This document shows positions 4,782 through 38,890 of a DNA stretch of 54,937 nt, one piece after another (position 1 is the stretch's first letter; every line of letters starts with the position of its first letter). The position numbers were made by a program, and so were the translations under genes. Location of the stretch: the NCBI GenBank assembly GCA_001724265.1, contig MEDY01000190.1, positions 1-54,937 of the forward strand, written 5' to 3'. The notes below the pieces were generated by a model, which had not been told where the DNA came from, did no database searches, and saw only the letters and a program-made list of their open reading frames with translations. Source of the DNA: Rhizaria sp. SCN 62-66 (Eukaryota).

Positions 4782-5039
4782 TTACATTTGGCGTTGGAGC
4801 GATGAGCAATATATGGCGTCGAGCTCAATCAGCGCAGGCTTCGCGCTCTTGCTCTTGCCAGCGCCAGAGCCAGCGCCGCCGGCACCAGCCCCAGGCCTGG
4901 CCTTGCCGCCGCCACGGGTGCCGTTGCTGTTGTTGTTGCCAGCCGCTGCAGCGGTGGGCGTGGGCGCAGTCTTGCCCCTGACCCCCGCGCCAGCGGCACC
5001 GCTCGCGCCCGAATTCGAACCATCGGCGTTCCCAGCGGC

Positions 5040-5070
<31 letters not shown>

Positions 5071-7978: not shown

Positions 7979-8021
<43 letters not shown>

Positions 8022-11000
8022 CGTAACAGACGAGGGTTCGGGCGGTGTGGGGTAGAGCAAAGCCACGCCGTCCGCGGCGTCCGCAGCCCAGAAGGGCGCC
8101 GCGGCGTCGGCCAGTTCGTCGAGCTCGGCCAGGCTCAGCGGCAGCCGCGCCTGCAGCTGGCGCGCACGCCGCACGCGCGAGCCCGCGGCGGCGGCCCGCG
8201 CGCGCGCTACGCGGCGGCGGTGCGCGATGAGGCCGCCCGCGAGCACGGCGGCGTCGCCGTGCGACAGCGAGTTGCTCGAGAGGTCGAGGTGCGTCAGCGA
8301 GCCGCCGCGCGCGAGGCCCTCAGCAAACGCGGCCACGGCGCCCGGGATCAGCCCGAGGCCGACGCCAGCCAGAGAGAGGTGCGTCAGCGTGAGCGAGGAG
8401 GAGACCACCTCGGCCAGCGCGGTGACCGCTGCGATGCCGGGGCCGATGAGCATGGTGCCGCGACCGGCGCCGCTCGCGCCCGCGCTACCGCCGCCGCCGC
8501 CCGCGCTGCCCGCGCCGGCGATGCCGCTCGTCGCGCTCGCGGCGCTGCCGCCGCCGTCGTAGGCGCTGCTCAGGCCCGTGTCCGCGCCGCCGCCGTCGCC
8601 GGCCGCACCGGCGGCCGCCGCGCCGCCGTTACCGGTCGAGGCCGAGATGTCCAGCCGGGCCAGCGACGGGTGTCCGCGCAGCGCCAGCAGCAGCGGCGTA
8701 AGCCCGGCCGACGTGGCGCCCGCGCCGCGCAGCGAGAGCGAGACGAGGAAGGGCAGAAACGGCAGCGAGGCCGCGAGCGTGGCCAGTCCGCGGTCGCCGA
8801 GCGGGTTCCCCGAGAGGTCGAGGTGGCGCAGCGGGCGCAGAAAGGACGGCAGCGAGTGCAGCGGCGGGAACGGCGAGCTGGGCGACAACGAAGGATCGGT
8901 CACAGCGGAGAGGACCAGCCGCGCCGCCAGCGGCAGCGAGACGTCGGCCGCGCCGGCGCCCGTGCGGTCGGCGCCAGCGCGCGCATCGTCGTTGATGCTT
9001 GCGCTGGTGTCGAAGCTGGTGCCGGTCTTGCCCGAGTTCGCGCCGGCGGTGGACAGAGTGCGCGCGTACTGAATCATGCACGCTCCCATCGTCATGCCGC
9101 CGGGGCCACAACTCATGCCGTTGCTGGCCACGGTTGCGCTGGCGTTGGCGTTGGTGGTAGCGGCGGCTGCGCGGGCCTGTGCCCTGTACTGTCCGAGGAA
9201 CAGCGCGAAAGGCACGCGCGCGACGCGGCCGCGGCGGCGGGGGCGGCTCTGGCTCGGCACAAGGGCAGTCGTCGCGATAGTCGTTGCCGTCGCCTTGCTT
9301 GTGTTTGCGTTTACGCCCGCGTTACTCAGCGGGAGCAGCTGCGGCGGAGGCAGCGAGCCAGCAGCAAAGCCTCCTGCACCCGTATTAACACCAGCAGCAG
9401 TGCTGCTACTCGAGGTGCTGATGTTGTTATTGTTATTGTTGCTGACGCTGAGTGTCCTTGAGAAGGCAAGCGGCGACAGCGCAGGCAGTGCAAGGCTGCC
9501 GCCGGAGCCCACACCTCCGCGGCTGCTCGGCACCCTCTCGAGCGCGACGCCGCCGGTGCCGCCGCCGGCGCTGTTGGAGGAGGGCCGGCCGTCGCCGCCG
9601 CGTGAGCGCACGCTCTCGCGCGCCTTGCGGGCCTCCTCTTCCTTGGCCACGGCCGCCGCCCGCGCACGCGCCGCATCGGCCGCGGCCGCCGCCTCGGCCG
9701 CAGCGTCGTCGTCCTCGTACTTGGCGCACGCACGCGCCGCGACACCGGCCAGCACTTCCTGCTGGAACTCGAGGAGGGAGGCGAGCTCGCCCGCAGCCAG
9801 CGGGCCAAGCCCGAGGCTGCGCAGCGACAGGCGGCCGCGGTAGCACGCGCGGCGCAGGCGGCGGCAGAAGTGCGCGCGCTGGCGGCCCGCCGCGGGCGCC
9901 GAGAGCGCGAGGTCGCAACCGCGCGCGGCGTGGATGGCCGTGGCCAGCGCCGTGATCGCCACGCGCCACAGCGCGTAGTCCTGGTGTCGCCGCTGCCACA
10001 GAGGCATCTCGAACCCGGCGCTGACACCCACTCCCGTCGCGCTTTGAGCGCCGTTGCCGTTGCCGTTGCCGTGTCCCCCGCTGGGGACCGGGCTCCAGGG
10101 CTCGTCGCCGTTGTTTCCATCGCCGTTGGTGTTGTTGTCGCCGCCGCCGTCGTCGCTGCTGTCGACGACGTCGGTCGGGCAGTCCGAGTCGTCGCTGTCA
10201 TCGCCGTCGCGGCGGTCGGCGAGACTGCTGTAGCGGCTGCGGCTGGCGCTGCCCCTGCCTCTGCCCTGATCCTTTTTGGGGTGATAGGTCGGGAACGTGT
10301 CGGCCTCGGTCTGGGCGTCGCCGTCTGAGTCGGAGTCAGACGGGGCAGCAAGCTTCAACGACCTCTGCGGCTGCTGCTGCCGCTGCTGTTGTTGTTGTTG
10401 CTGATGGTGGGACTGTGAACGCGAGTTTGAAGCTGATCTGGGGTGACTGTGAGCAGGTGAAGGACTAGTCTCGGGATCAGCGTCGTCTAAGTGTCCAAGG
10501 CCCTTAGAACCCACTAACTGGACACCGTGCGACTGAGGCCGGCTTGCGCTAACCGAGTTCAGAGAGGGCAGAACCAGAGTGTTCGAGCCGTGAGCACTGC
10601 GAACGGCGGCCTCCTCGCGGTCACCAGCAACTCCGCTAACGCTGTTTCTCCTCTTGTCGTCAGTCTTGAAGTTGTAGCTGTTCTCCGTAGTGCCATCATC
10701 ATCAGCGCCACTGTCGTTTTGCTCACTGGGGAACATGTAGGTGCCCTTATCCCACTCGTCCGCGACCCACAGCAGCGACGTGTTCGCGGTCACGGCACCA
10801 GACGCGGTTAGACTGCCGCCGAACGTGTTGTCACTCGTCGTGCCAGACAGGCCCTTGGACGTGACTGAGCTTCCCGTACGCGTCTGCGCCTGCGCCTGTG
10901 CGCGCACCGAGAGCGATCCCCCATGCAGCGTCGCAGCGGCGGCCGCGGCGCGCGCAGAGGCCGTTTCCTTCGCGCTCAAATACAGGCCGCCCTTGGCACC

Positions 11001-12836
11001 GCTGTGTGGACCCGCGCCCGCGCCGGCGCCGGCGTCTGCGGCAAGGGCAAGCGACGGCGGCGGCGGCCGGCCCGCGGCGGCGGCAGCGGCAAGCGCGCGC
11101 GCCTCGAGCAGTCGGCGCACGGCGGATAGCTCGCTCTGCGACAGTGTGTTGCCGCCGAAGCTGCTGCTGCTGCCGGCAGGGGCGTCGGAGGACTCGGCAT
11201 CGGCAGAGGAGACCGCGTTGGTGATGTTGTAGGAAGAGGAGCGGTGCGAGTAAGGCAGCGGCTGCGGCGGCACGTAGGCGCGCGACGAGAGTGCCGAAGT
11301 TAGGCCGCCTTGCGGGGAAGTCAGGCCGCCGCCCGCAGAGGTGGCGAACGCAGCGAGGGCCGAGGCCGCGGTCGCCGCAGAGCCGGCGCCAGAGCCCGCG
11401 GTCAAGGCCGAGTTCGGGGCGAGCGCGAGCGCAAGCGCGGTGCACAGGTTGTCAGCAGCCGCGATAACGGACTGCGACGGGAACGGGCTGGCGTTGCCGC
11501 TGCTTTTGCTGCCATCGTTGTCGCCACCATCATCGTTGTTGTCGTTCACATCGTCGCCGTTGCCGTTGTCGGCATCGTCGCCGTGCTTACTCTTGCCCCC
11601 GCTGCGCCTCTTAGCTGCGACGCCCAGAGCCTTGCCACGGGCAGCGCTGTTTCCACCAGTTGTACTCTGCGGCGGCTGCTTCTTATTGACGGCGCTGGTC
11701 CTGCTGCCGTGGCTGCTGCTGGTGGTGGTGGTCTTGTTCGTGCGGAAGTGGCTGTGCGCCGCCGCCGCGGTCGCATCTTCGCGATCACCCCTGGCCGCCG
11801 CGGCCGCAGACGCCGCCGCCACTCCCGCCTCACCGTGCTCACCGTCGTCGCCCTCCTCGCCGTACTGCCCGCGCCCGCTGCCGCCGCCGCCGCCGTGGCC
11901 GTGGCCGTGGCCGTGGTTGCGCCCGCGCAGCAGCAGCCGCGAGTAGCCGTCGTCGGTGCTGCTGCCGGCGCCTGGCGCGAGCGGCCGCGGCGGCGGCGCG
12001 TGGGCCGCCGTCAGCAGCGCCGCCAGACGCACCAGCGGCGGCAGCTGCTGCAGCTGCTGCGCCTGCGCCTGCACGGCCGACGGGAACTGGAATGGCGGGT
12101 GGTGCGGCGACGGCGACGGCGGCGGCGGCGCTGAGGCGGCCCCGGCAGCGGTTGTGCCCCCGCTGTGCGAGGAGCTGGTCAGGAGCACGCGTCCGAAGGC
12201 GTGTGCGGCGGCGCCGAACGTAACGCCCGAGGCGGCCGCGGCAACGCCCGCGGGGCCCAGCACGTCCCTAAGCTCGGCGGCGACGGCGGCGCGGCGGGCC
12301 TGCGCCATGCGCGCGGCGTGCTCGAGCTCGTTGGCGCTCGCGGCGAGCGTTGGCAGCGGCACCTCGGGCTGCCAGTGGGTGCAATCCGCCAGGCGCGCGG
12401 CGGCCGCGGCCGAGCTCGAGGACGCCAGGGAGGACGCGGCAAGCGCGGCTGCGGGCGCGGCGGCGACCGGGACGGGAGCGCGCGCGGGCGGGCGCGCGAA
12501 GGCCGAGGCGGCGGAGGCGGACGCGCCGTGCTGGCCAGAAGGCTTGTTGGCCGCGCCCGTGAAGCCCGGGTGGTCGACCGTGATGCGCTCCAGCGTGCGC
12601 GCGCGGGCCGCGGCGGGGGCGCGGCGGGCCTTAGTGTCGGAACGCCCGGATGGACCTGTGGACGAGGTTGAGGGTGTGATAGTAGGCGCGCCAGTGGGGG
12701 CGAGCGCGATGGCTCGGGCCGCGTTGGACAGCAGCGTCAGCTGGCGCGGGCGCGCTGTGGCGGGGCTCGCGTAAGACGGCGCGTGCGCGGAGTCGCCGAC
12801 GACGCCCGGGAAAAGGGCGCCGCGGGAGGAATCCAT
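4782..12836 (-). CDS. Very large single-exon RNI-like leucine-rich repeat protein with a C-terminal coiled coil (~2684 aa)
   Basis: Repeats such as LRHLDLSGNPLGDRGLATLA, LTHLDLSSNSLSHGDA, LVSLDLSANPLTSAG, LEALTLDGNPLG, MRVLSVAGNPIKDEG and LTRLNLSNCSFGD, separated by low-complexity inserts. Heptad-like E/L/A/R/Q C-terminus. First ATG at 12836 (start uncertain). Ends in TAA. Confidence 0.85.
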
Positions 12837-13391
12837 CGCTAGAGAAAGCGGCAAGGCGCTGGCGCGGATATATGAGGGAGGCAGGGAGTGCAGAGCAAGA
12901 CCACAAGGTTCGGCTCAGAAGACTCGCCTGCAAAGGGATAATTTGATGTCACGATGAAGTGAGAGAGAATTATACACAAATTGAAAAGGTTAATATTATG
13001 ATATGCAAGAGACAGACAATTTAACGTTCATTTCAAGGCGCTGCTGAGTGCCAAAGTTGGTGGGCGGTTACCCAAAGTGACTGTGGGCTTCCACGCCAGC
13101 GACAGCTCGCCAAATCCGTTGAGAGTGTAGGCTTCAGAGCGAAACTTTGACCACTGGTTATATCGTATCCCGTCCGACAATTGCAACTGTGACACCAGTA
13201 TATTAATATATTGTGAGTATAATGTATAACACTTCATTTATCACTCATCAATCTCTGTTATACCTTCTCTAACCCATCACGAAACTTGCCTACTCGCGCC
13301 CGCCACCACACACATCTCGTCCATTCCTCCTGATACACTCTCCGCCCTCCCGTGCAGCCTTTCCTGGCTTCTCTCCCGTTTCCCTGCGGTC

Positions 13392-15134: not shown

Positions 15135-17073
15135 TCAAGTGAAGCGCGACGACAACCCCGCCCGGGCGCTGACGACAGCGCCCTGCTCGCCGCCGTCATC
15201 ACCAAGCCCCTGCTCGACGCTGCGCGCCTGGTAGCTCACCGCGCCCGTGCGCCCCTGCAGCCCCATGGTGCGGGAGCCAGAGGCGAAGAGCTGTTCACGG
15301 TCAAATTCAAACGCCGCCGCGGGGATCGCGCGGTTCAGGCGCCCGTAAGACGCGCTGCGCGGTGAAAAAACAGTAAAAAACACATAGTACAGATTTTTTA
15401 AGTTAATATACATCAACATCGTTGAACGAAAACAAACAATTGAACAGAAGATGTGTCCACATGTCGATGCGCTTAAGATGAAATGATGACGTACCCTGCC
15501 ACTGTCGCAGCCGCGCCGGCAGCGGTGCTGCTGCAGCTGCCTGCCTGCTTCCGCTCCCACGCCTCAACCTTGGCGTCAAGCACCGCACGCACCGTCGCCA
15601 CAAAGCCCCCGTCGTTATGCGCATCGCCGCTGCCACCGCTGCTCGCGGCCACCTTGGGCAGCCCCTCCTCGAGGAGCGCGCGCGCCGCCAGCTCCGCACG
15701 CCTGGCCTCATCGAGCGCGGTGCGCGCGCGCCACAGCGCCTCGGCCGCGCGGCCCGCCGCAACCTTAGCCGCCTCCGCCGCCGCCTCCGCCGCCGCGCTG
15801 GCACTGGCGGCCGCTCCGGAGGACGAGGGAGCGACGCCGCCGTAGGCGGCGACGGCGGCCGCGCGCGCCGCCTTCTCCTGCGGCGTCAGCATCCAGTCCG
15901 CGTGCGCGTCCGCCGCAGCCGCCAGCGTCGCGCGTGACTTGTTAAACTGCCGAGGCGCCTGCAGCGACAGGTCGGCCTCGGCGCGCGCGCCATTGGGCGT
16001 CAGCAACGCGCTGCCGCCACCGGGACGGCCGCCGAAGACGCCGTCGAGCGCCTGGGGAAGACATCGGGACAAACAAAATGAAGAGGTAGTTCGATATGAG
16101 ATAAAAATCTGAAGAAGAAACAAACTCCTAATATTTACGGCAAGAAACAAGTCATTGAAGATGATGTTGTTGTTTTTTAGTGATACATTGTTGAACGTAC
16201 TGTCGGGATGTCTGTCATCCAGGCGCTGCGGGCCGCTGGGCCAGCGGCAGCAGCCTCGGCAGCTTCCTTGGCGGCCTCTGCTGCTAGCTTCGCGGCGAAT
16301 TGCTCCTATACATCAACAATAAAGTTAAATCAAAGCCAGATGAAATCAGACATGTTGGGGTTCAGAGAAAAACTCAGTCTTATAGATAGGACGTCGCAAT
16401 ACACCATTCAAGTTGCTGCACTCTGCCTACTGCAGCCTTCACGGCGCACGACACGTACCTCACGCCGCTTGTCCTGCAGCTTCTCCAACCGCTCCCTCTG
16501 CTCGTCGGTCATGTCCTCCGCCCTGCGCGGCCCCATGTCATCGTCATCGTCGTCGCTGCTGTCTTCGCCGCCGGTCGCTGCGCCCTCCCCGGGTGCCCGG
16601 GTCGTCGCCTCGGCCGCCGCCGCGGTGACGCCCACGGTTGCCGCGACCGTGGCCATGAGCGCGGCCGCCGCCTGCAGCCAGGCCCCGCGCGCGCGGACCC
16701 AGCTCTCAGCCGCCGCGCCCGCCGCCTCCGCCGCGCCCGCCCCGACACCAGTCACCGCTGCATTGCCGCCTGGAGCTGCACTCGCATTGCCTGTAGCTGT
16801 GCTTGAATTCGCCATGGTGGCAGCGATTGAAGCGCGGACCACGGGCTTCAGCGCCGGCGTAAAGCTCGACTTGGCCAGCGCACCGGCCGACTCCCTTACA
16901 GCCACACCGCCCTCGACGACGGCGGAGACAACGGGTCGGAGTTGGGCCAGTAGCAGTGCCTGCTCCAGCGCCGCGCGCACGTCTCGGTCGGGTACGCCGC
17001 CCACGTCGAGCGGCTCCTCCGCGCTCGCGCCGGCCGCGGCGGTTGCTAAGGCCTCCAGGTCAGCGGTGCCGGC

Positions 17074-17104
<31 letters not shown>

Positions 17105-18405
17105 GCGCCCCGCGCGGCGGCCGCGGCGGCCGCCACCTCGGGCTCCGGTGGCGGCGCGGGCAGCGCGGCGGGCACCACAACGGGCGCGGGCTTCTTCCCT
17201 GTCCCCGTGGTCGCGGTAGCGGTAGCGGTCGCGGCGGCGGCGGCGGCAGCAGCGGCCACGGCGACGGTGGCGGTGACCGCCGCGGCAGCAGCGTCGGACA
17301 GCCAGCCGTGGGTCGCAATCAGCGGGCCCCACACGGGACCTGCGCCAGCGCCAGCGCCGGCACCAACACTCTCGGCGCTAGGGCCCGCGTCAGCCTCTGC
17401 GGCTGCTGTTGCGGCCGCTGCTGCGGCGGCAGCCGCTGCTCCAGAAGGCCCGGCGGCCGCTGCGGCCGCGTCCGCCGCGGCCGCGGCCGCGTGGCGGGCT
17501 AGCGCTGCCCACAGCATCTCGGCGGCGGCCTTCTCGGCGGCCGAAGGCGGGTGCGGCGGAAGCGAGGGCAGCGAGGTCGCGGGCACGAGCGGGGGCGGGA
17601 CCGCGTCTAAGGGCCCTTTAGAGTCGGCGGGGCCCTTAGAGGACGGATCGGTGGCGGAGGGGTAGTGGTAAGGGAAGAGTGACTGGCGGAGCTCGGCGTC
17701 GGTAAGTAAGGCCGCGTACTTATAAGCAGCCACGTCAGCGGGGTACTTAGCAGCAGAGGCAGAGTCAACGCTTGCACTTGCAGTGATTGATGCTGTCGCC
17801 GAGGCAGCGGACGGCTTGCCGCTTTGCTCACGCTCACGGCCACGGTCACTGCGGTCACGGTCCTCGTGCTTGTCCTTCTTGTCTTTGTGGTCCTTCTTGT
17901 CCTTCTTGTCGCGTTTGTCGTGTTTGTCTTTCTTGTCATGCTTACTGCTGCTGTCTCGGTCTCGGTCACGGTCGCGGCTACGGCTCCGGTCTCGGCGACT
18001 GCGGCTCCTGTCGCGGCCACGGTCGCGGTCACGACTGCGGCTGGAGTCGGAGCTGCTGCTCGACCGGCTCGAGCTGCGGCTGCGGCGGCTGCTGCGGTGG
18101 CCGCGGCGGTCACCACGGTCGCGCTCACGGTCACGGTCATAACCACGATCCTTGCGATCGCGGCTGCGGTCACGGTCGCGGTCGCTGCGGTCCCGACTGC
18201 GGTCCCGACTGCGGCTGCGACGGCCGCGGTCACGATCACGGTCTTTCCGGTCCCGGTCCCGACTACGGTCACGGCTACGGTCACGGCTGCGGCTGCGGGA
18301 GCGGCGGCGCTCGCTGCGGACGGTGTCGCGACCGCGGGAGCTCAAGCTCGACGACTTGTCCGCGGCCATGCTAGCGTCGGCGGACGACGTTGGAGCCGAC
18401 GACAT
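15135..18405 (-). CDS. RS/RD-domain protein with a GPALPP1/DUF3752-like C-terminal region; exons 18405-16459, 16305-16201, 16051-15495, 15354-15135 (~942 aa)
   Basis: Three GTACGT..YAG introns join the ORF-track pieces and a 105-nt exon in frame. N-terminal RSRSRDRSRDR and KKDKH repeats. C-terminal motifs RSAWMTDIP, DWMLTPQEK, FEFDREQ and AGLSSRF are typical of DUF3752. Ends in TGA. Confidence 0.72.
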
Positions 18406-18892
18406 TGCCGCCTCTGAGCAAGGGTGGACGGTGGGAAGTGCAACGGGTGGCAAGGTGAGAGGGGCGAAGAGAGAATAGGTAAAGCTAGCGTATACATGTG
18501 CCTGTCATGGTAGCATTTTAGATTTATTGCAAACATGTGCGACTATTCATTAGTAGGTCTTCAAATTCTGCACTGACGGTTGTGGTGTGCGAGGAATATG
18601 GTGTCCCGATCGAGCTCTAGATTCGCCCAGGCCATCCAGAAACTTGTCTCGTCACCTTTGTATCATGTCTTGCTCGCCGCGACTGAACTGAATTCAAACA
18701 TAAGCGACACGAATGAACAAATCAAGTTTTCACCCATTAAACTCCATTGTTTTAGTTTGTTTATCTATACCTCCAGTAGTGGTATCTTCACTAATAGTCC
18801 CCACCCAGAAAGTTGCCAAGCCCCCCACTCGCCCGCTTGCCCCGGCCTCTCGCCCCGCCCCACATAGCGGCCCCACGCTCTGCCCGTCCGCC

Positions 18893-23590: not shown

Positions 23591-24498
23591 AACACCACTC
23601 TCCAGCTCACTCAATATGCGATCTTTTTGTTTATATCATGCAGCAATGCACATGTACAGCTTGTATTCACGCATTTTTAGTAGTATCTAAATGAATAATT
23701 AGTCATATGTTCAATTTTTCATGTTTCTTGCTTTGATTTTGAATGTGATTTTGTCTCTTTCTGGTTGATGTTGTGTTGTTCACCTGTCGCATGTCTGCGG
23801 CGTGACTGATTTGTTGACAACCAAGCCAAACGCAGTAGACTTATTTTCCGCGCGTGCCACTGCTTATTCTCGTCTTTCCCTGTATATTTGTCATGGACGA
23901 GCATACTCTGCCTAGGCTTGCTTCCATGGTCACTGCTGTCTGTCATTGCAACTACCCTTTTGCAGCTGTGGAACGGAGCGGCAATACGACCCGAGTCGGT
24001 ATTTTCTTGTGTTTGCGACTCCACAAATGCACGAGATATCTTTTTAAGCTTATTGTCGATGCGCAGTTTCCTGTCTGCCGGAAAACGCTCGAGATGAACA
24101 ACACTCACAGCCTGAGTGTCACTAAGACACAAATGTGCAAATATATACACCGATCAAGTTCCTTTAAGTAAAAACACACACACAACTGTATAGATGCAAT
24201 TGTACGTAGTAAGCCGCTCAAAATGGTATGACTTATTGACGAAGGTGTTGTGTTTCTGTGGTTTTCGTCGTTGAAATCGCAAGTTGACGCACGAGCGCAA
24301 ACTCTCACTCAGCCAACGGATACATTTTGGCTGCGTTATGTTTCGTTGAATAATAGAATATTAATGGGTTATTTGGGGATATAATTAAGAAAATATACAT
24401 TTATCAAAGTCTTACATACTATATTGAAAGAATGCGGCATCTGACGATCAATTTCTGTCAATATCTTAACTTTAATCTCGGTTTTTTTGCACAGCTCA

Positions 24499-26029
24499 AT
24501 GGAGCCGGGTCGTCGCCCAAACGGCCCCTCTCCGGCCGCTGCACGCTTTCTACAAGAGCTAGCGCACCGCGACCATCAACAAGCACTTGCCTCTGATGCG
24601 CTGTATAGCTTTAGCGCCCATAAAGAGGCCCGAGACAAGCACGAGGAGGAACGCGTCGCTCGTATCGCGGCCCTCAATCGTCAAAAGCAGCAACACCTTC
24701 GCGAGGTATGTCTCGCTCCCAAACAAATTCATAACAGATCAAGTCGCATAATATTGACCTTAATCTAACCTATATTCCGCTCAATATGCTACTTTTACTG
24801 TAGACCCGCGTCGCGCTCGGTCTGGAGGAGGACGACTCCGCAAACCTTCTCACCACCCCAATGGAGCAAATGCGGGCACAGATGCTGGCCAACCGTGTAA
24901 ATGCGCTTGCAGACACTGATGACGACCGATTTATGCATGTACACGCGCGAGCTGCGGTAGCAGCGCCGTAGCTTACCCCGCAACATCAGCGGAGGCAACC
25001 GCAGCTCCCGGCAGCACAGTCAACACTGGCACATCAACAGCAAGTTCAGCCGCAGCCTCCGCAGTCGTAGCTGCAGCCGCGGCCGCAGCCGCAGTCGGTG
25101 TTGCCCCGGCCTGACAACGGCCCCTTCTCGCCCTCGCGCCTCGAGGCCCGGCGCGCGCGCTCGCTGGCCGCGCTCGCACTTGTCCGTGCAGAGACGGCTG
25201 CCGCAGAGGCCGCCGCCGCTGCTGCGGCCGCAGAGGCCGCGCAGACTGCTGCCAAACAGGCTGCCGCAGAGGCAAAGGCTGCTGCGGCGGAGGCGGAGGC
25301 TGCGGAGGCCGTCGCGGCTGTTGACGCGTCTATCCTGACTCTCCGCGGGATTGAAGGCGCTGGGCATGAGTTCGACTTTGCGCAACCTGACGCGCAAAAG
25401 GGCATCTTCGTCTCGGTTGGCGCCGGCGCCAAGGCAAATACGAACGGTGGCGACACTGACTTGCGCCCAAGCAACACGAATATCAGCGATGTTGCTGGCT
25501 CCAGTGTTGCTGCGACTCAGCACGACCGCGCAATCGGTGCCGGTATTGGCTCTGGCCCTGCAAACAAGAATTACTACGGCGGTAGTCGCCACATTGGTGG
25601 GCATGGCGACTACGGCGGCTACAGTGACAACAGCGGTGGCGAGGACGACGACGAGCTTGTGTCCGCGGGCGCGTACAGCGACGTCAAGCTCTTCCACAAG
25701 AGCGGCGCGGGCACGGCCACTGGCATCGAGAGCGCGGTAAGTGCGACTGGCGTGCACAGTGTGAATCTTGACAACAGCTACTACAACAACAACTCGCACA
25801 TCACAAACATCTCCCACTTGGCGGTTACCATTGACGCTGGAAATAACAAACATGCCATCAATTCATTGCAGGCCAGTGCAAGTAATGGTAAGCATTTGAG
25901 GACAGATCATGCTTCCACTATTGCGGAACAAAGCTTCAGTAGTCGTCGTGTGAACAACGCAGATAGCTCTGATGCACCACTTGTGACTAAAGACCCATGG
26001 GATGCTTGGGACAGTAGCTCTGACGACAG

Positions 26030-26094
<65 letters not shown>

Positions 26095-29000
26095 GCAAAT
26101 CTCGCAACAAAATTACGAATTTACACTCGATTCGCCGTAACAATCGCGACAGCAACAATAACACAATCTTAAACGTCTCTACCTCTGCGAGCAAGAGCGT
26201 CATGACTACTCCCAAAAAGTCTGCTTCGACGGCTGAGTCTGCGGCAGCGCTATTGGTGGCCAATGCAGCGCTAGTTATCGCGTCTCCGCCCCGTGTATGC
26301 CGCGGGTACCCTACGGTGTCACTGCGTGCTCGCGACTTGCAGCAGCATCAGCAACAACAACAACAGCAAAACAACGTCGACAGCACTGACGGCTCTGATG
26401 CGGCACCAGGTAGCAGCGCAGTGGATGCTGTCAAGAAGACTGGTCTGCTGGGCGGTAAAATGTACATTGTGCCGCCGATCAGGAGCAATGCATCAAGCTC
26501 TATCGTGCGCAACTCCAGCAAGTCGCACAACGGGGCCGATGACGATAACTATGGCGATGGCAACAGCGACAGCGATGGTGATGACGCCAGCAGCGACAAT
26601 AGCAATCGCAATAATATCGACACGAATATCGACCACAGTCGCCGCTTTAACTATAATATCTTCAGCAGCAGCACTCGTCGCACGCATGTTGTGGCAGACT
26701 CTGTCGTGAGCTCTGTTTCCGTGTCGAACGCAGGCTCAGTGCACGTGTCTGCGTACGTGCCGCACAGCAACACGCGCCCCCGCCCGATGCCTGCGGTGCC
26801 CAACGGGCCCCTGACGCTCCGCACGATCCCTGTCTTGATGGTGCCGGTTACAACTGCAGGAACGCATCCAGCAACGGTGCAAGACTCAGTGAGCTCACAG
26901 CCTCAACTTCAGTCTCCCGATCAGTCAGCGGGAGTTGCGCGACAGTCATTGCTGCACAATAACAGCTCGTTATCGCGCCGCTACACGGGCGTGCCGTCCC
27001 CGTCGTCGTCGCCCGAGCCGACCGAGGCCGACGTCGCTGCGCTGTATGCGCACGAGGCTGCTGAGAAGCGCAGACGCGAGAGCGCGATTGCGCGCGCTGC
27101 TGAACAGGGGTGCGACGTTGCGAGCACGGTGCGCCCACTAACAAGCGCGGTTAATAACAACTCTGCACAAGCAAGTCAACGTCGCAGCAATAGTGACGTT
27201 GTTGACTCTGTGGGATTTGTGGCACAGAGGAGCAGCATCAGTGTCTCTAAGAACACAGCTGATAGCAGTCAAAGCGCTGCCCGTGTCCACGACCCACTGG
27301 CCGTCAGCATGATGAAGCGCCCCGCTTCGACAGCGACTGCTGTTGGTAATCGCGACAGCGCATACGAAACTGTAACGAATTATAACAGGACTACTGGGCT
27401 AACTACGGTCGTTTTGCCGAGTGAAACACTGTCTGCTAAGGCCGCTGCAACCGTCGCTGCTTCCGCCGCCGCCGCTGCCGCTGCTGCCGAGGCCTTGCGC
27501 AGGCAGTATGAGGACGAGGACGACCTTGACAGCCATTTAGCGCCGCGCGAGCGTCGCAGCTACAAGCGCGCGCAGGCACTACGCGAGCAGCAGCAGTTGC
27601 GGGAGCAACAGGCGCAGCAAGAGCTGGAGCGTGGGAAGCAGCAGCGGCAGCTTGAGCAGAAGCTCGACAACTTTCTCGATAGTTGTGACCAGGAGCGCCG
27701 CCGCGAGCCGAGCAAGCAACATCCGTGGAGCAATAGTGGCAACGGTGTCGTCGCCACGATATGGACCGACCTCACGAACAGGGCCCGCGCCGAGGCCAGG
27801 GCCGCAGCCGACGCGAAGTTTTTCTTGCAGACCGACCCTTTGCACGACCTCGGGCCCGAGTCCGAGGCCGAGGCCGCTGCCGACGCCGCGCTGGCCGAGG
27901 CCAAGCGCTCCCTCGCGCTCGCCGCGCGCCGCCGGCTCCGGGCCGAGCGCGCGCGCGCGGCGGACGACGCCGACAGGAGGGCTGCGGCGGCGATCGAGAG
28001 CGTCATGACCGGCAGCGGGGCCAGGGAGGTGCTCGATATGTCAAGCCGCGCGGTCGATAAGTCAAGTCGCCACAATGACGAGTCGCATGCTGGCGTTGCT
28101 CATGTTGAGGACGACCGAAACACGAGTGGTCACAGTGCTAATATGAAGAGCGTGTACGAGCATGTGACGCGTCTCAGGACAACGGAGGCAACGTCGGGGC
28201 TTTATCGTGAATACTCAAAGCGGACGTTTGTGACTGCCGCTGATGACGATCGTACTGATGCTGCGCACGGCTATAACGATGATATTACCCGGAATAATAA
28301 CGCAGGCGACAGCGTGCGTGCTCACGGTGACTCTCGGGTAGGTGTTTGTGGTCACTCTCAACGCCACGGTCACGCTGACTACGACGGAAGTGACGACGAA
28401 CATGATGACCACGACGACGATGACGCTGCTTCTGATCGTGGCGACAATACTCGTAACCTTAACCACTTAGAAGATCTTCTAGTTTATGGCCACGCCTACG
28501 GAACCGGCGACGGCGGGAGCAGCGGCGAACGTGACTTCGACAATGACGGTGACGCCGCATACGACAACTGCTATGTCCACGAAGGTGACGGCGGCGACTC
28601 TATGGGCGAGTATGCCGCCGGTGGTGTCGGTCGTCCTCACAAGGATCCCAACTACAGCGGCAACGGCAACGGCAACCCTTACTATGATGACGGCTCCGAC
28701 GGCGAGTTCAACGACCACGATGACTGCATTGAAGGCGACTACTCCGAGGGTGAGGGTTATTACTACGAAGGCGACGGCGGGGAAGGAGACTATGAGCTTG
28801 ACGACAGCAGCGGGTACGTCGTTGGCGATAGAGGGAGCGCAACTTACTATGACGACGACGACGACGACGACAACGCCTATCCGGATGCTACCCATAGCCG
28901 CGCGACCCACAACCGCGATGCCTACGCTCACGATCCTCGCAGACACTATCGCTATAACCAAGGCAACCACAACACATATCGCGGGTATAGCAGCAGCCGT

Positions 29001-30533
29001 AGCAACGACAACATTGCTCGCGGCAAGGGCTTCACTGTCACCGTCGACAACGACAATGATTACGATGATAACGGAGTCAATAGTGGCGACAACAACAACA
29101 ATAACAACAATCCAAACTTTAGCGGTGACGGTGCGAACGCGCGCAACGACGACAACCACGTCCGTGACCGCAGCAGCAGTGACGATGACGGATTCTATGC
29201 GATCGACGGAAATCAGAGTGGCAACGCGACGGTGTGCGACGAGTCGGACGATGACAGCGATGACTTTAGTGCATCTAATAGTTATCGCAGGATTGACAAC
29301 AGCCGCACCACGTCTCAGACACAAACGCAGGCCACTCAGACGCAATCCCGCACGCAATCGCAGAGAACCACTGAAACCCAGACTCAAGCGCGCGCCCACA
29401 CACAGGCCCAAGCTTACACTCAAACCCTGAGCCAAGCTCAGAGTCAGTCTCAGACGCAGACTGACGGCAAGGTTCAGTCAGAAACACAGCCACAGTCGCA
29501 GAGCCGGAGTCAGCCACGCGGCCGCCGGTCGCGCCGCCGCGGCCTGCAGACGCTGCTGCTGGCGCCGCCGCGGCACTGGCCGGGCGGGCGCGTGCCGCCG
29601 GAGCTGTTGTCCTTTAACAGGGCGCGGAAGCGCGCGGTGGACCTGGCGATCCGCACGCGCGCGCACACGCACGGCCGCGGCGTGACGGGCGGGGGCGGGG
29701 CACGCCGCAGCAGTCACGTCCAGGGCGGCGGGAGCATGCCGGAGACTGAGGCTGCGGCGACAGCGACAGAATGCCTGAACAGCAGCACCACATATGGCAG
29801 CCCCCGGAAGACTGGTTCGTCTCCTGAGAGATCTAAGCAACGCTTGCCGAGTAACGATGAGTCCATCAACCGCAGCTACTCCCGGGGTGGACACTGTCAC
29901 TCCAACAATGCGAGCTTCAGTGACGCCGGCGCGGCGTACAGCCGCTCGCCCCGGCGCGGCGGCAAGGCTGGCAATGGCCATGTGCCGACTGTGCCGATGA
30001 CCGTCGCCGTGACCACGCAAGCAGCAGACACAGGCGCAGGCGCAGGTGCGAAGGCTGCAGTGAGCTTGGGCTATTCTAACACGAGCGCGCGACCTGTTTG
30101 GCGCGTCTCCGGCGGCGTCGGCTCCCACAACAACAGCATCAACCTCAACAGCAACGGTGTTAAGAGCAATGGCGCCGGTGTGAATAGCAGCGCCAGCGCT
30201 GCGGCCGGCCTCGGCGGCGGCTACGGCTACGGCCACGGCGGCGGCGGCGCGGCGGGCGCCGAGATGGGCGTGCTGACGCGCGTACTCGTCAATACGGGCC
30301 GCAAGGTCGGCGTCGTGAATCACAAAAGCAGGCGCGAGAGACAGCGCGCGCGCGAGCAGCAAGAGTTGCAGGAGATGCAGGAGTTGTATGAGATGCGGCA
30401 ACTGCAGGAGCAGCAGGAAGAGATTGAGCGCGAGCGGCTGGAGCAGTGGCAGCGCGAGGAAGAGGAGGCGTTCAGCGCGGTGCTGGACATCAGCGACGCC
30501 CCCGTGAATGTCTCGCACGAGAAGCGCGCGTAA
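24499..30533 (+). CDS. Large low-complexity protein of unknown function with coiled-coil segments; exons 24499-24705, 24804-30533 (~1978 aa if two in-frame TAGs are read as sense)
   Basis: The intron GTATGT..CTAAC..TGTAG (24706-24803) puts exon 2 in the frame of the 1811-aa ORF. The only interruptions are TAG at 24969 and 25068, within a Gln/Pro-rich stretch. Ends in TAA. Confidence 0.72.
26031..26093 (+). repeat. (AAC)n microsatellite encoding poly-Asn, with one ATC interruption
   Basis: Directly visible tandem AAC run inside the CDS. Confidence 0.95.
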
Positions 30534-31076
30534 AAACGAACTCGTTATTTAGTACTTGTGCGACTGCACACAGTGTTACCGTTACATAGAATCAAGCTTT
30601 GGCTAACAAAGAAGAATATCAATGAGCGCCATAAACGCATACAAAACTTATTTTATGAGATATACAACTTAATATAGAGTATTTTCAAGTCATTAGTATG
30701 ACATTTCTAAAAATCCTTGATGAGACTGTTGATTCTGATGCTGTACTCCTCGTGTTACTATTTTTCTTGGTGACCAAGCGACTGCAGTGGCGACCGGTGA
30801 CTGCCAGCAAGGGCCTATACTCCGCGAGTTCAGAAACGTATATCATGCCTCGCACCATCCGTCAAATAGCATTCCGCGGACGAAATCCGCATTTATGTGA
30901 CGTAATATCTATTATAATGTAATTATGTTGTGCGAACCGTTATCTATGCATGGCAGCACCTTCCTCAAGTTTCCACAACTTTTGTTGCTGCTCCACTGCA
31001 TGTTTCCCCCTCCCGCACTTCGTTCACCTCGCATGATATACTCACAACCTAAACTCCCTCTTGTTGCACCGGATAG

Positions 31077-32849
31077 ATGTCTCGTCGCTCGCGCTTCTAC
31101 TCCCCGTTTGTGGTTGGCGCCACGCTGGCGTTCATCTACACCGGCTGGCGCGTGAAGCAGCACGAGCTCAACAACTCAAACATGTCATGCTCCTTCAACT
31201 CCGGCCTGCGTACGTCACTACATCAATAACAACCACAAAGCGTTGTGTATCCGCTATATCGCTGACTACGTCGGACTATACTGTCATTTTACTTCTTAAA
31301 TAATGCGTCGGCACTACCTCGCACAACAAACACTAACTTCCCTTCACTCCCGTTCTCTTGCACTTGACCCTTCTCTCTATCGCGCACTTGCGCGCTCGCT
31401 CGGGTCGCAGGCGGTGGCTTGATCTACGAGCGCCTGACCCCGTTTCTCTTCAAGGCAGACCCGGAGCGCATGCATCGCTTGTCGATGATTTTCCTCTCTG
31501 CCCCGCGCTTCACCCGCTACCTCTTCGGGCTCATCGACACCAAGCCGGCGCCGCCGTCGCTGCAAACCTCGCTGCTGGGGCTGACGTTCCCCAATCCCGT
31601 GGGGCTGGCCGCGGGCTACGACAAGGACGGCCAGGCCGTTGACGGCTGCCTCGACCTGGGCTTCGGCTTCACCGAGGTCGGCTCCGTTACGCCCTTCCCG
31701 CAACCCGGCAACCCGGTCCCGCGCGTCTTCCGCCTCCCCGAGGACCGCTCCGTGATCAACCGCTACGGCTTCAACTCGCAGGGCGCGGCCGCGGTCGCCG
31801 CGATCCTCTCGCGGCGCTACGAGAACCGCCAGGCGATGCTTGACTGGGAGCGCAAGCGCGCGCACGACCGTCTCCACGGGCGCCCGCCCCTGTGGGAGCG
31901 GATGACCGGCGCCGCGCCGCCCGCACCCAAGGAGCCCCCCAAGCACGTCTCGGCGGCGGAGCTGGGCATTGTGGGCGTGAACCTGGGCAAGAACAAGACC
32001 AGCGACGACGCCGGCGAAGACTACGCCGCGGGCGTCGCTGCGCTGGGCCCTCTCGCCCACTACCTGGTCGTCAACGTGTCATCGCCCAACACGCCCGGAC
32101 TGCGCGACCTGCAGGGCCCCGCCGCGCTGCCCGCGCTGCTTGCGCGCGTGCTTGCCGCGCGCGACGCGCTGCCTGCGCGCGCCGTCCGCGGCTTCCCCGA
32201 GCGCCCCGCCGTGCTGGTCAAGGTGGCACCCGATCTCACTCTCGACGAGCGCGCCGACGTCGCGGCCGCGTGCCTCGGTACGGGCGTCGACGGGCTCGTC
32301 GTTGCCAACACCACCGTGGCGCGGCCCGCTTCGCTCAAGAGCAACGCTGCGGTGGTCGCCGAGGCGGGAGGGCTCTCGGGCGCCGCAGTCAAAGACGTCT
32401 CGACGGAGATGGTGGCGGATCTCTACACGCTGACCGAGGGCCGGCTGCCCATCATCGGCGTCGGCGGCGTCGAGACAGGCGCCGACGCGTGGGATAAGGT
32501 TCGCGCGGGCGCGTCGCTCGTGCAGATGTACACCGGGCTCGTCTACCGGGGGCCGGTCGCGGTCAAGCAGGTCAAGGAGGGGCTGGCGGCTAAACTTCAA
32601 GACGAGGGGCTGGAGGCGATCGGCGAGGCCGTGGGGCGCGACGCCGCGGGCATGCGCAGCGCGGGCGTGACGCGCGCGCTGGTTGACGCCACGCACAGCA
32701 AGGCGGTCGCCATCGCCAAGGAGAGCGCCAGTCAAAACAGCAAGCTGCTGGCCAGTGTCGGCGTGACCGACGCGGCCGCGCTGGATGGCCACGCAGGGGC
32801 GGGGGCGGGGGCGGGCAAGAGCAAGGGCTGGTTCTGGGGTTGGTGGTGA
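31077..32849 (+). CDS. DHODH: Dihydroorotate dehydrogenase, class 2 (quinone-dependent, mitochondrial); exons 31077-31209, 31411-32849 (~523 aa)
   Basis: Motifs [70 protein letters not shown] (catalytic Ser), VKVAPDL, GGLSG and IIGVGG. Exon 1 supplies a basic leader and a TM helix. Intron GTACGT..CAG is in frame. An additional upstream exon is possible. Ends in TGA. Confidence 0.96.
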
Positions 32850-33370: not shown

Positions 33371-36300
33371 ATGCAAACGCCTGCGCGCGTGCGCCCTGCT
33401 GCGGGGCCGCTGCAGACCGCTTTTAACGGTCCCCGCGCCTCGGCTATGTCGCCCTCCGACTCCTCCCCCCACACGCCCTATACAACAGCAACTGCCACGA
33501 GCTCAGCCGCTGCAGCAGCAGCCCGCAACGGTCCCGCCCCCGGCGGCCCGGCCGCGCCTCCCGCCGCGATTCTCTCCCCGTCGTCTCTTTCCGCGCGCGT
33601 GACCACGTCGCACTTCCCGACCCCGATGGAGCTGGCGCGTTCGGGCGCGCTCGTCTTCCCGCCGGTCCCGCCCTCTGAGCGCGCGCTGTGGGCATCGACG
33701 CCGCTCGCCAAGCTGCGCGAGTCCGAGGCCGCGCAGCGCGCGCAGATCACGGCCAAGCGCCAAGAGCTGCGCTCGCTGGTCACGCGCTGTTTCCGGCAGC
33801 TTTTGTCGTCCGCCGACACGATCATCGCGATGGACGGCACCGCCACCGCGCTGCACGAGCGCATCTCCAGCCTCGACGCGCTGCTCAACAGCATCGACAG
33901 CTCACTAGCTGTCGACGGTGCCAGCGGTGATGGCGCCGGTGCTGGCGCGCTTGACTCCGCCTCAGCCTCCGCGGCGGCCTCGTCCGCTGCTGCCGCGGCG
34001 ACCGCTGCCGCGACCGCGTCCGTGACCGCGCTGACCGGCGCCGTGTCCTCTGTGTGGGCCGCGCTGCGCGGCGGCGACGAGCTGGAGGCCGCCGTAGGGT
34101 GCTTTGAGGCCGTCGCGCTCTACACTGCGGCGGTCAACGCCGCAAACAACGTCAACACCAAGAACACCCCGAACGCACCAGACAGCAAGACGGTGAGCAC
34201 GCCTGATACTACTGTTCTGAATGGCTCGTTGTTCGTTGAGCAAGCGAACGCGGCGCTGGCGCTGCTGCTGGCGCACGCGCCCGCGCTCACGGCCGCCGCC
34301 GCGCAGCGCACGCTGGCGCGCGCGACCGCGGGTCCCGACGCGCTCGCGAGGGCCACGCTGGCGCATTCACTGGCCACCGCCGCCGCCGCCGCTGCCGGCA
34401 AGACCGCCGCTGCCGCCGCCGCCGCCTCGGCGAACGCGAGCGACGCAACGGCGACTGGCAGTATGCTGCCGTTCACGTTTGGCAGTGGAAGCGACGACTG
34501 CAGTGCGAGCGCGAAACAGCAGCAGCAACAGGCGGTGCTGTCGTTTCTGAGCGCGCGGCTCGGCGTTGCGCGCACCGCCTTGGACGCGGCAACCACCGCT
34601 CTGAACGGCGCTCCTGGTAGCGCCGCCGCGAGTGCGCGTGTGCGAGTGAGTGAGTCGGTGCGCGTGCGCATCGTCACGCACGCGATCGCCACAGCGGTTC
34701 AGGCCGCGAACACGGCCTTCGCGCTCACGCCGATGCTTGCGCTGCCCTACAACATTAGTGTCGCTGGCAACAACAACAACAGCAACAGCAACAGCAATAG
34801 CAGTGCGAGTAGCAATGACGTCTCGTTCAAGTCACTCGAGGCACGCACCGCTGACTTGTGTGTGATGCGTCCTAACTTCGCGCGCGGCTTAACTTTAGCT
34901 CTCACCCGCGCCCAGTCGCAGTCGCAACAGGCATTAGTTCTTAGTAACGCTCGCGCGACAGCGAGCCACACGGCTCCGTGGCTGCTGGTGCCGCTTTCAC
35001 TGCCTCCCGCGTCTCTGCCCGCGACCGTGCTGCCCCTGTGGCGCCTGACCGAGGCCGCGCTCACCCCACGGCTTAACTTCCTCATCGGACTGCTGACAAC
35101 CGCGAAGGAAGTCGCCGCGGCGCGCTCGGCGCTTCTCACCGCATCAACCGCATTTAGCGCGAGTCATAGCCCGGACACGAGCTTGGTGCCTGCAAACTCT
35201 GCTCCTGTTGCGCCTGCGAGTGCCTCTCTGTCTCACCGCTGCCCTCTCACGGGCGTCACTGCTTGGGCCGGCACCCCCGCCACGTGGGCCGCCGCCGCCG
35301 CCGCCAACCTTGGCCCTTCAGCCGTCGCCGCCACCGCCGCTGCCGCCGCCACGGCCAGTCAGCCCGCTGGCCCGGTGGTCTCGCGCGCGCCCTCGTGGCC
35401 CGACGCCTGCGCTGAGGCGCTGGGGGCCCGCGTGGGCGCCGCAGCCGAGGCCGTGGCAGGTCGGCTGGGCGAGCGCGTGCGCGCCACGATTGCCGTGTTC
35501 ACGGTCACCGGGCTCACGGTCACCGCCGGGCAGCGGGACGCTTACACCGCGGCCGAGAATGTAAGGGGCGCGGGTGGGAGCGCGCCTGCGTATAGCTGGA
35601 TGTCGCAGGCTGACTGTGGCATCACCTCCGCGCTCTGCACGGCCCTCTCCATCTACTACAATAACAACGCCAATAGCGGCCTCAACGGCTCCGTGGCTGC
35701 TGGTGACAGTGCCATCGCGACTGCGGCCGCTGTCGCCGCCTTCAGGGCCGCGCGCGCCGCCGACCGGGCCCGCGACCGCCTCCGCGACCGCGCCCGTGTC
35801 CGGTTCACCAATGCTGCTGCGAGTGCCGACGCGACCGCACTCACAGTTGTCTCTCGTTCTCACAGTTAGAATCTACAGAATCTGAATCAGAGTCACAAGC
35901 GGCACACTGCAGCGGTTGTGGCTGCCGCCGCCGCCCGCGCCCGCGCTCGCGCGCGCGCCGCCGCTGCGTCCATTGCGTTCGCGCGCCACGTGTTCTCGCT
36001 GTTGGGCGTTTGTGACGGCTTTTTGACGCAGAACCCGCTGGGCCTGACCGTGGCGGAGGCAGCCGCCGCGGTGGTTGCCGTCGCGGGCCGGCGGGCCGGC
36101 GAGGGGGTGACTGCGAGCGGCACGGACAAGGCGGCTGTGAGCGGCAGCAAGGGCAAGAGCAGCGGTAAGAGCTCGAAGAATAAGGGTGTTAATCCCGACG
36201 CAACGACTGCTAATCACGCGTCTGTCGTGTTCTTCTTGTCTCTGCTCGCTCTGTTCACGGAACAGCAACAGCAGCAGCAGCAACAGACCGGATTTAGCTC

Positions 36301-38890
36301 GAGCACGACGGCGATTAATGCTGCGGGCGGTAATCGTCCTCCGCTGCTGTCAACAACGCTCTCGCACCACGGGCGCGTAACGGCTGTTTTGCGCACAGTC
36401 AGTGCCGCGATTGACGTCGCTGTGCTCGACGCCGCGCGCGACGCGCTCCTGCTCACGCGCCCTTTCGCTGGTATGAGTACCCCCTTAGACGGCGCCGGGT
36501 ACTACTGCAGCGTAAGCCGCCTTGCGTCGGTCTCGGCGCTGTGCGTGGCCGATGTCGCCAGCAAGGTCACCAGGGCTCTCGCGACCGCAGTGACCGTGGC
36601 CGCGGCGGATGCGGCGGCGGCTGTGACCGCGGTCACTGCTGCTGCAGTGGCGAGCGGCGCCCTGGACTGTCCCTCTTTGGCCCCCAGTCATAACAGCCTT
36701 TACACCGCGAGCAATAGCAACGGCGCGAGCACAAGCGCCAGTGCCAATGTGTGCGATAGTGCGAGCGTTGTCGCTCTGAACGCTGCGCTCTCGTCGAACT
36801 CACTGCTCCGCGGCTTAGCTTCGGAACAGCGGGGCGGCCTACCTGCGGCGCAATTCGGCCGCGCGTGCGACGCCGCTTCTGCCACGACGCTGCTGCTCTC
36901 GCGCGGCCTAACTTCGAGCTCGCGCGCCACAGCACTGCTGCTTCTGGTCGCATGCCCCGCCACCGAGAGCGCGAGTCCTCGCGCGGGCTCGGATGCGGCT
37001 GTGGCCGGTCTCGCGTGCGCCCACGTGTTTGCGCTCGAACTACTCAACTCGGCCTCGGTCGCCGCAACGGCCGCCGCGAACGCTGCCGCCGCGGCTGTTA
37101 CCTCTGCAGCCGCTCAGGACGGCACGAGCGTTGCCGCTGTTGCTGCTCGTAATAGCTGTGTGAGCGAGAGCTCTGTGAGCGCGAGTGCCGGCGCTGCGAT
37201 CGCGCCCGCACAGGCCGCCGCGGCCGCGCTGCGCAGCCACTGGCCGATGTCGCACGCGTCGTTCACTCTCTCCGCGCTTGCTGCCAGCGCCACCACGGAT
37301 AGCACTGGCGTGACGGCCTCAGCCTCTGCGGCTGCGGTGACCGCGGCTGCTGCTGCGGGCGCGGCCGCGGCGACGGGCGCTTGGAGCCGCGCGGCAGCTG
37401 CCGCCACTGCGGCCGCCTTCGGTTCGGTTCTCAACACAGTTAAGACCAACCCTAGCAGTGTGTCCATGAGTGAGTTTGGGCTTGAGTGTGCACGCGTTGT
37501 CGCTGCTGCCGCCGCCCGCCGCCGTGCGCGCGCATGGGGCGCTGTCTCGGGCGCAAACAGCGCTGACAGCGGCAGTCTTAATAGTGACAGTCTTAACAGC
37601 GGCAGTCTAGGCACCGAGAGCAGCCGTTGCAGTGAAGCGATCGCGCTTGCGACCGCTCTCTGTGCTGTCGTCACCTCATCCACAGGGAATCCCTCTCAGC
37701 AACAGCAGCACGTCACCGTGGGTGCTGCCTATGTGTTGCTCCATGCGCTCCCAAGCTCACAATCGCAGGCTCAGGAACTGGCTGTGCCCACCGAGCTTGC
37801 GAGCGCGGTGGCCGCCCTCGCAACTGCGCTCAGCAGCACTGGGAACGCCCCTGCGATGACTCCCCGTGAGCTTGTCGCTGCTCTCGCCCACTTGCATGCG
37901 CGCTCGCAGTCGCAGCTTCCGGCTCAGTCGCTGGCCCAGGCCGCCTCTGCTCTCGCGATTCTGCTGCTCTCGCCTGATCGCGTGAGCCCTGCTGCGCTGG
38001 CATCGCAGGGAGACAGCAACACGAGTCGCGTGAGCGTCATTCGCGGCCCTCAGCTCGCTGAGTTGCAGTCTGTCTTCACCAGCGCAGTGACCTCATTTGC
38101 GAAACCCCCTCTCAGTCACTCGAATAACCACAATAACAGCGGTGCGAACAGCATTGCTGTTGTCGCAAGTGCCAGCGCTGTCGCCCGCTCGCTGCAGCTG
38201 CCCACACACATCTACGCCTCCGCCTTTGCCGCCGCGGCCGCTGCAAACAACAGCAGCGCGGGTGCGGTAACCAGCGGCTCGAAGCCCGGCGCGGTCGCCG
38301 CCGCAGGCAAGAGCGGCAGCGGCAGCGTTCTCGGCGCCAGCGGAGCGCGCAAGCAGAGCGGCGCTGATGGCAACGGCAACGACAACGGCGACGATGACGA
38401 GGACGATAACTGGGGCGTCAGCGCGAGCATCGGCGGCAGCGGCGTGTTTTCGCTCGCCGCGGCGGCCGCGAGCCGCAGCAGCAGCGGCGCGGGCAGCAGC
38501 GCGGGCCGCGGCAGCAGCGCCAGCGGAGGCGGCAGCGCCAGCGGTATGGCTGGTCCGGAGGCCGCGGCGGCACTGTTGCGGCGCCACGCGACCGCGGCGA
38601 CCACCAGCAACACAAACAGCGCCGCCGCCGCAGCCGCAGCTGGCTACTCGGGTGGCGATGGCAGAGGCAGGGCGAGGGACGGCGGCGGCGCCCGGCGCGG
38701 CGGCGCGGGCTCTAAGGGTGTCGAGGCCGCGGATGTAAGTGCCCAGCAGACTGTGAGCAGCGTTGGTGAGTCCGTTGCGCAGCACTTGGCCAGCTCGCTG
38801 CAGAGCGCCAAGGCCACGGCGAGCTCGTTCCTGGCCGCCAGCGACGGCGCGACGAGCATGCTGGCCTCGTGGGGCCTCACGTTCGACTAA
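33371..38890 (+). CDS. COG1: COG1-like (Vps51/Vps67 N-terminal domain) Golgi tethering subunit; a single ORF of ~1839 aa if TAG at 35867 is read as sense
   Basis: TPLAKLRESEAAQRAQITAKRQELRSLVTRCFRQLLSSADTIIAM matches the COG1/Vps51 N-terminal pattern (K-x-x-ELR-x-x-V...R-x-L-x-x-x-ADTI-x-x-M). The 868-aa and 990-aa ORFs are in the same frame, separated only by one TAG, with no AT-rich intron. Ends in TAA. Confidence 0.68.

Follow-up and report, generated by a model that had tools for sequence, protein, structure and literature searches.

The gene that begins at position 24499 on the plus strand of the 54,937-nt stretch of DNA analysed here (hereafter the window) carries two in-frame TAG codons near its start and then runs on as a long open frame, which raises the question of whether UAG terminates translation in this organism or is one of its sense codons. 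An initial annotation of the locus had argued that a sense codon fits the two TAGs better than decay of the gene. This is the reading that the present analysis supports best, with a third in-frame TAG in another gene, no TAG among 12 gene ends and no introns of the type used by this genome at the TAG sites; it stands nevertheless as an unproven proposal. We give about an even chance to the statement that UAG is translated in this organism, probably as glutamine.

The window represents a eukaryotic contig with GC-rich exons (GC3 of 0.7-0.9) and AT-rich introns and spacers. We recognised 13 genes, several of which are orphans. The set includes an HtrA/Nma111-like protease, an ELO elongase, a ZIP transporter, a zinc-type oxidoreductase, and an intronless quinone-type dihydroorotate dehydrogenase (DHODH; 31368-32849, plus strand) with a Trp/Phe-rich C-terminal tail ending in …GWFWGWW, the nearest relative of which ends in …FWFF. 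On the minus strand, 2,710 codons in one uninterrupted, intronless frame ending in TAA (4785-12914) encode an LRR protein with LRR_6 and LRR_1 as its only Pfam matches, and an RS-rich gene (15476-18504) encodes a protein whose long N-terminal region is rich in Arg, Ser and Asp (RS-like) and which also has Ala-rich tracts and matches DUF3752 weakly. In-frame TAGs number three in the window and are confined to 2 of the 13 genes, and no internal TAA or TGA occurs in the GC-rich exon sequence. The 12 coding stretches tallied comprise approximately 12,000 codons, against which three in-frame occurrences make UAG a rare codon.

The target gene starts with exon 1 (24499..24705, plus strand), which consists of an ATG and 68 further codons, ends in phase 0 and occupies the sole open frame among the three of that interval. 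It is followed by a putative spliceosomal intron (24706..24803, plus strand) of 98 nt and 0.36 GC with the borders gag/GTATGT...ttactgTAG/acc, resembling four other introns that were checked, and by the main exon (24804..30533, plus strand), which encodes an orphan low-complexity protein and ends with the TAA at 30531-30533. Both TAGs lie in the frame that opens at 24804, as the initial annotation had stated, and the translation given there matches. TAG 1 occupies 24969..24971 (plus strand, context gcgccgTAGcttacc) and TAG 2 occupies 25068..25070 (plus strand, context cagtcgTAGctgcag). The parallels that had been drawn from the local sequence are also borne out: the codons CCG TAG CTT at 24966 have a counterpart, CCG CAG CTC, eleven codons further on, and TAG 2 falls on the glutamine register of the run Q6-S-*-L-Q10-P-R-P-Q14-P-Q16. 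The two sites (24966-24974 and 25065-25073) have the 7-mer CGTAGCT in common, and at each of them a leucine codon comes next (CTT and CTG, respectively).

The long intact frame claimed for the sequence past the TAGs is present as well, with 1,820 codons open from 25071 to the TAA at 30531. When TAG is not counted as a stop, positions 24735-30530 form one frame of 1,932 codons with three TAGs, one of which is the intron's own acceptor, and with neither TAA nor TGA. In the interval 25071-30530, the other two frames contain 36 and 123 stops. The short segment that holds TAG 1 and TAG 2 behaves differently, since each of the three frames of 24804-25070 (89 codons) has two stops, and therefore stop counts do not favour any one frame there. 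The codon-usage score of the TAG-bearing frame is negative around both codons (-0.3 to -0.8). Its GC content by codon position is 0.83/0.46/0.42 and 0.84/0.47/0.56 in the TAG-bearing pieces, matching the 0.80/0.45/0.57 of exon 1. A shifted, R/S-rich frame (24961-25335) scores slightly better near the two TAGs; it was rejected, as it closes with a TGA at 25336 and no indel was seen in any sequencing run.

A third in-frame TAG is found in the second affected gene, a Vps51/Exo84/COG1-like gene (33371..38890, plus strand) recognised by Pfam family PF08700 (E-value 3.1e-07), which consists of 832 codons, the TAG, another 1,006 codons and a TAA at 38888. TAG 3 occupies 35867..35869 (plus strand, context cacagtTAGaatcta). 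The codon-usage score of the gene's frame is positive ahead of this codon as well as beyond it, and the other two frames around it contain stops and score about zero or lower. A 69-nt dip to 0.45 GC in the coding frame (35838-35906) is centred on this codon, and an acceptor-like pyrimidine run, ttgtctctcgttctcacag, lies just upstream of it. The 832 residues encoded ahead of the TAG are presumably about the usual size of Vps51/COG1-type proteins, a point against translation through TAG 3. For the frame beyond it (35870-38887), the ESM Atlas returned a best score of 0.78 with TM of at most 0.28, and no family could be assigned.

The frame remains open past each of the three TAGs, in sequence with a GC content of 0.69-0.77. 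Beyond TAG 2 the first ATG comes at 26202; the 377 codons before it, counted from 25071, are free of stops, with 7 and 21 stops in the other two frames. Beyond TAG 3 the first ATG comes at 36473, and the 201 codons before it, counted from 35870, are stop-free as well, with 6 and 9 stops in the other two frames. Both of these ATG-less stretches score as coding, and therefore they must be entered from upstream. The TAGs themselves recur in independent sequence data. Contigs of two other runs, X3 (record 9, 24000-25705) and X4 (record 16, 24000-25263), have no differing letter over TAG 1 and TAG 2; X3 (record 14, 35418-38336) has the same letters as the window across TAG 3; and the comparison with four runs at this locus revealed no variant. 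The TAGs are therefore present in the DNA and do not represent assembly errors. In sum, they are real, in frame and embedded in sequence of the coding type.

The 12 gene terminators of the window comprise 10 TAA and 2 TGA codons and not a single TAG, which by itself is only weak evidence, because TAA is so dominant and the sample is small (3 TAGs against 12 terminators). The surroundings of the terminators are more distinctive. The 200 nt past each of the 12 have a GC content of only 0.33-0.49, despite the GC3 of 0.7-0.9 in the genes, and the base following the terminator (+4) is a purine in 11 out of 12 cases; at TAG 1, TAG 2 and TAG 3 this base is C, C and A, respectively. Thus, the three TAGs are unlike the gene ends of this genome.

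Other candidate in-frame stops were inspected and rejected. A further TAG (45942) lengthens an ORF as well; since it closes a CT-rich tract in front of an exon, it was assigned to an acceptor or a leader and not to a sense codon. The 493-codon ORF 16184-17662, which appears to end in TAG, is spurious, being antisense to the RS-rich minus-strand gene. The ORFs 49261-53613 and 53617-54936 resemble a readthrough pair, but the resemblance is due to an ordinary phase-0 intron (53542-53739); its length of 198 nt is a multiple of three, and it holds one in-frame TAA. A screen of general design, which required 60 scoring codons on either side of a stop, proved too strict: it recovered none of the three TAGs, and its hits were confined to one TGA within an intron and one in antisense sequence.

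The standing of these codons depends on whether they remain in the mature transcript. The five introns checked in this genome are 98-226 nt long with 0.33-0.39 GC; all have GTAYGN donors and pyrimidine-rich acceptors, and AG precedes four of the five. Removal of the TAGs by splicing would proceed from the donor at 24706 to the AG of TAG 2 (25070) or to a CAG at 25076, 25088 or 25094, so that the acceptor at 24803 would yield an unproductive, stop-containing isoform, and TAG 3 would need an atypical intron of its own, either short or GC-rich. The phase allows it: with exon 1 closing in phase 0 and the long frame opening at 25071, 24706-25070 (365 nt) would be an in-frame intron. The two stops in each frame of 24804-25070 and the weak codon score of the TAG-bearing frame also speak for it, as do the pyrimidine run and the drop in GC at TAG 3. 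On the other hand, composition switches sharply from AT-rich to GC-rich at the textbook acceptor 24803/24804, and the segment 24804-25070 has approximately 0.6 GC and a strong three-base periodicity like that of exon 1, values far from those of the checked introns and of the 200 nt after the terminators. The composite intron 24706-25070 would accordingly combine the right donor with 267 of 365 nt at approximately 0.6 GC. No GTAYG donor occurs in 24804-25075, nor in 35000-35870, i.e., within 870 nt upstream of TAG 3. The in-frame intron candidates that would remove both TAG 1 and TAG 2 have 0.59-0.73 GC; the one that the initial annotation had named as a formal possibility, 24897-25070, is a poor candidate with a GTAAAT donor and 0.59 GC. 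Among 474 in-frame candidates for TAG 3, the 18 of at most 160 nt have 0.40-0.72 GC or measure only 30-57 nt, and in place of a consensus donor they start with sequences such as GTCCGG or GTTGTC. Hence none of the TAG-removing candidates listed combines the donor, composition, length and acceptor that are typical of this genome, and no joint that removes a TAG is found among the 15 joints listed out of 154. The poly(A) RNA run X6 contributed eight listed pieces, seven of which lie wholly within exons. The remaining piece (record 24, 24570-24792) is unspliced over 87 nt of the putative intron 24706-24803 and supplies all X6 depth in the bin 24507-25013; being unspliced, it may represent intron retention, pre-mRNA or DNA carried into the library. 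None of the X6 pieces listed spans 24793-25126 or 35867, which is compatible with splicing at both places and equally with every other reading, and another run, X14, gave only short, imperfect low-complexity matches. Weighing these observations, we consider splicing of the TAGs an improbable explanation.

Two further explanations keep the standard code. According to one, CAG codons turned into TAG by nonsense mutations that became fixed in two fast-evolving low-complexity genes, which would now be recent pseudogenes or genes that tolerate truncation. With the codon usage of this genome (266 CAG against 57 CAA in 7,783 training codons), nonsense mutations are expected to produce TAG and to fall in Q-rich tracts. 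For the orphan target protein no relatives were detected, and truncation at 35867 would leave an 832-residue product that retains the only recognised domain. However, the marks of a pseudogene, namely mixed stop types, frameshifts and lost periodicity, are missing from both genes: TAG is the only stop type, and the 1,820 and 1,006 codons downstream are free of frameshifts, TAA and TGA, with coding scores (0.31 and 0.33) and GC3 like those of the intact genes. Decay would also have to deliver three nonsense hits to 2 of 13 genes that are otherwise undamaged, two of them with a spacing of 99 nt right at the beginning of a gene of 1,978 codons, an odd coincidence, and the same letters recur in runs of different studies and years. 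We judge decay unlikely, to the same degree as splicing, although nonsense hits of very recent date may be compatible with intact genes of this kind. According to the other explanation, near-cognate tRNAs decode UAG at particular leaky sites, giving short and long isoforms. TAG 3, which divides a domain-complete product of 832 residues from an extension of 1,006 codons, is placed as expected for such a site, and C, which as the base after a stop makes the weakest termination context in eukaryotes, follows two of the three TAGs. The target gene, in contrast, would need two such events in succession, and its short product would comprise 124 residues of a 1,978-codon frame. Known stimulators of readthrough include CAR-YYA after UAG and CUAG after UGA; the hexamers that follow the TAGs (CTTACC, CTGCAG and AATCTA) fit neither of them, and normal termination in the window makes no use of TAG. 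Site-specific readthrough thus appears slightly less probable still than splicing or decay, and the small probability that is left falls to other errors in the gene models.

Translation of UAG is the most economical explanation because it accounts at once for three TAGs in two unrelated genes that have no other defect, for the absence of TAG from the 12 gene ends and for the lack of plausible introns. What we infer is that ribosomes read UAG, and likewise the amino acid inserted and the tRNA used. The amino acid is probably glutamine, judging from codon context: Q makes up 13 of the 60 residues that surround the TAGs (10 codons to each side), compared with 4.0% overall, and TAG 3 stands at the head of TAGAATCTA as its first unit, adjoining CAGAATCTG. 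A Q-rich context is equally expected if CAG was converted to TAG by nonsense mutation, so that it supports glutamine given that UAG is translated, and not translation itself. Leucine may be an alternative meaning of the codon. The assignment of UAG to glutamine corresponds to NCBI table 15.

By analogy with other UAG-only reassignments, we propose the following scheme. The organism, an uncultured, GC-rich and intron-poor eukaryote of bioreactor and wastewater metagenomes, would translate UAG, most probably as glutamine, and would have kept UAA (mainly) and UGA as stop codons. A tRNA with the anticodon CUA, one base away from the tRNA-Gln with CUG, would decode UAG, and an eRF1 that is poor at recognising UAG would leave the codon free for it. 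All three TAGs are situated in Q-rich parts of the proteins with low complexity, in which a transition from CAG to TAG would be almost neutral. More tentatively, we suggest that the lineage could be at a low-usage stage of the reassignment of UAG to glutamine, at which the use of UAG as sense would be restricted to disordered Q-rich tracts, where it does almost no harm. At this stage UAA and UGA would still terminate, in a lineage that is widespread in wastewater reactors. Genes that could speak to the mechanism are missing from the window, which has no tRNA gene, no Rfam match and no eRF1 gene.

The occurrence of the locus is better documented than its phylogenetic position. The stretch 24300-31000 is present in 13 out of 14 public runs listed, which come from eight studies and are all bioreactor, wastewater, fuel-cell or activated-sludge metagenomes, and in four of the runs listed at least half of its sampled words were found. 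DHODH is 100% identical to environmental entries, 66-67% identical to two further proteins and at most ~55% identical to any named protein. In a tree of 30 hand-chosen rows out of 121 fetched proteins, the window sequence clusters only with four environmental sequences, and the lineage is therefore unplaced; the closest cluster for DHODH in the ESM Atlas consists mostly of diatoms, which is a lead only. The comparative searches yielded no orthologs for the TAG regions. The target protein matches no Pfam family; a phmmer search with 1,200 residues of it, a low-complexity query, gave no hits among 1.84 billion representative proteins; and word-indexed searches, run within length windows with the low-complexity queries 24804-25400 and region 640-1140 of the COG1-like protein, gave no match. 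A scan of metagenome contigs with a DHODH alignment, aimed at syntenic loci of relatives, yielded at least 80 loci, all of them at 48% identity or less, among 583 confirmed candidates. These DHODH-anchored matches, dominated by distant DHODH genes, include neither the locus of the window itself nor the relatives at 66-67% identity among those listed, and none of them entered the analysis. Genome contigs of GTDB, in which eukaryotic contaminants of prokaryote bins were sought with the ELO exon, contained 46 pattern matches and no relatives. Literature searches found no published wastewater protist with a changed code.

Each case in which UAG alone has changed its meaning informs the understanding of stop-codon capture and of the co-evolution of eRF1 and tRNAs. 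If the reading of UAG as sense is true, a GC-rich organism with few UAGs, all of them at tolerant positions, would represent an unusually early or minimal stage of the process, and in its low-usage form it would offer a natural snapshot of stop-codon capture. Gene calling under the standard code would then truncate proteins of this organism at every TAG. Should splicing remove the TAGs, or should they be nonsense alleles, the observation is an ordinary one. In practical terms the organism is within reach, as at least four public runs contain most of the locus.

Several known systems resemble parts of what is seen here. In Drosophila, readthrough of the stop codons of kelch or headcase gives long extensions, and the second gene of the window is similar in having a single stop (the TAG at 35867) between two long in-frame coding stretches; the target gene differs in having two TAGs near its start, and no stimulatory motif of the CAR-YYA or CUAG type follows the TAGs. 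Ciliate macronuclear genomes are AT-rich and have tiny introns, whereas the contig studied here is GC-rich, holds multiple genes and has introns of 98-226 nt. The likeness to ciliates lies in the code, in that phyllopharyngean and other ciliates are reported as independent cases in which UAG alone, or apart from UAA, became a sense codon (PMC11687900; PMC10553269). A rhizarian comparison is provided by exLh (Sainouroidea), in which UAG encodes leucine and the terminators comprise 56 UAA, 15 UGA and no UAG (PMC5304391). That change is again restricted to UAG, and its terminators parallel the 10 TAA, 2 TGA and no TAG of the window; however, the codon is common in exLh, with 384 in-frame UAGs in 71 genes (PMC5304391), and rare here, and the context here favours glutamine over the leucine of exLh. 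The closest parallel in the assignment itself is the nuclear code of Iotanema spirale (Fornicata), in which UAG encodes glutamine and translation ends at UAA and UGA (Panek et al., 2017; PMC5304391). The two have in common a change limited to UAG, UAA as the dominant stop and, in our case on the basis of context, glutamine as the best-supported meaning. In Iotanema, this meaning was demonstrated by conserved alignments at many UAG sites, whereas here it comes from three sites in low-complexity sequence for which we found no orthologs; moreover, the organism of the window is GC-rich, comes from aerated or bioreactor sludge and is unplaced in its lineage, unlike Iotanema. In these sources, nuclear code changes confined to UAG are reported from only a handful of eukaryote lineages (PMC5304391; PMC11687900; PMC10553269). 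If UAG is a sense codon in this organism, the case would join a known kind of code change, in which its sparse use of UAG would be unusual.
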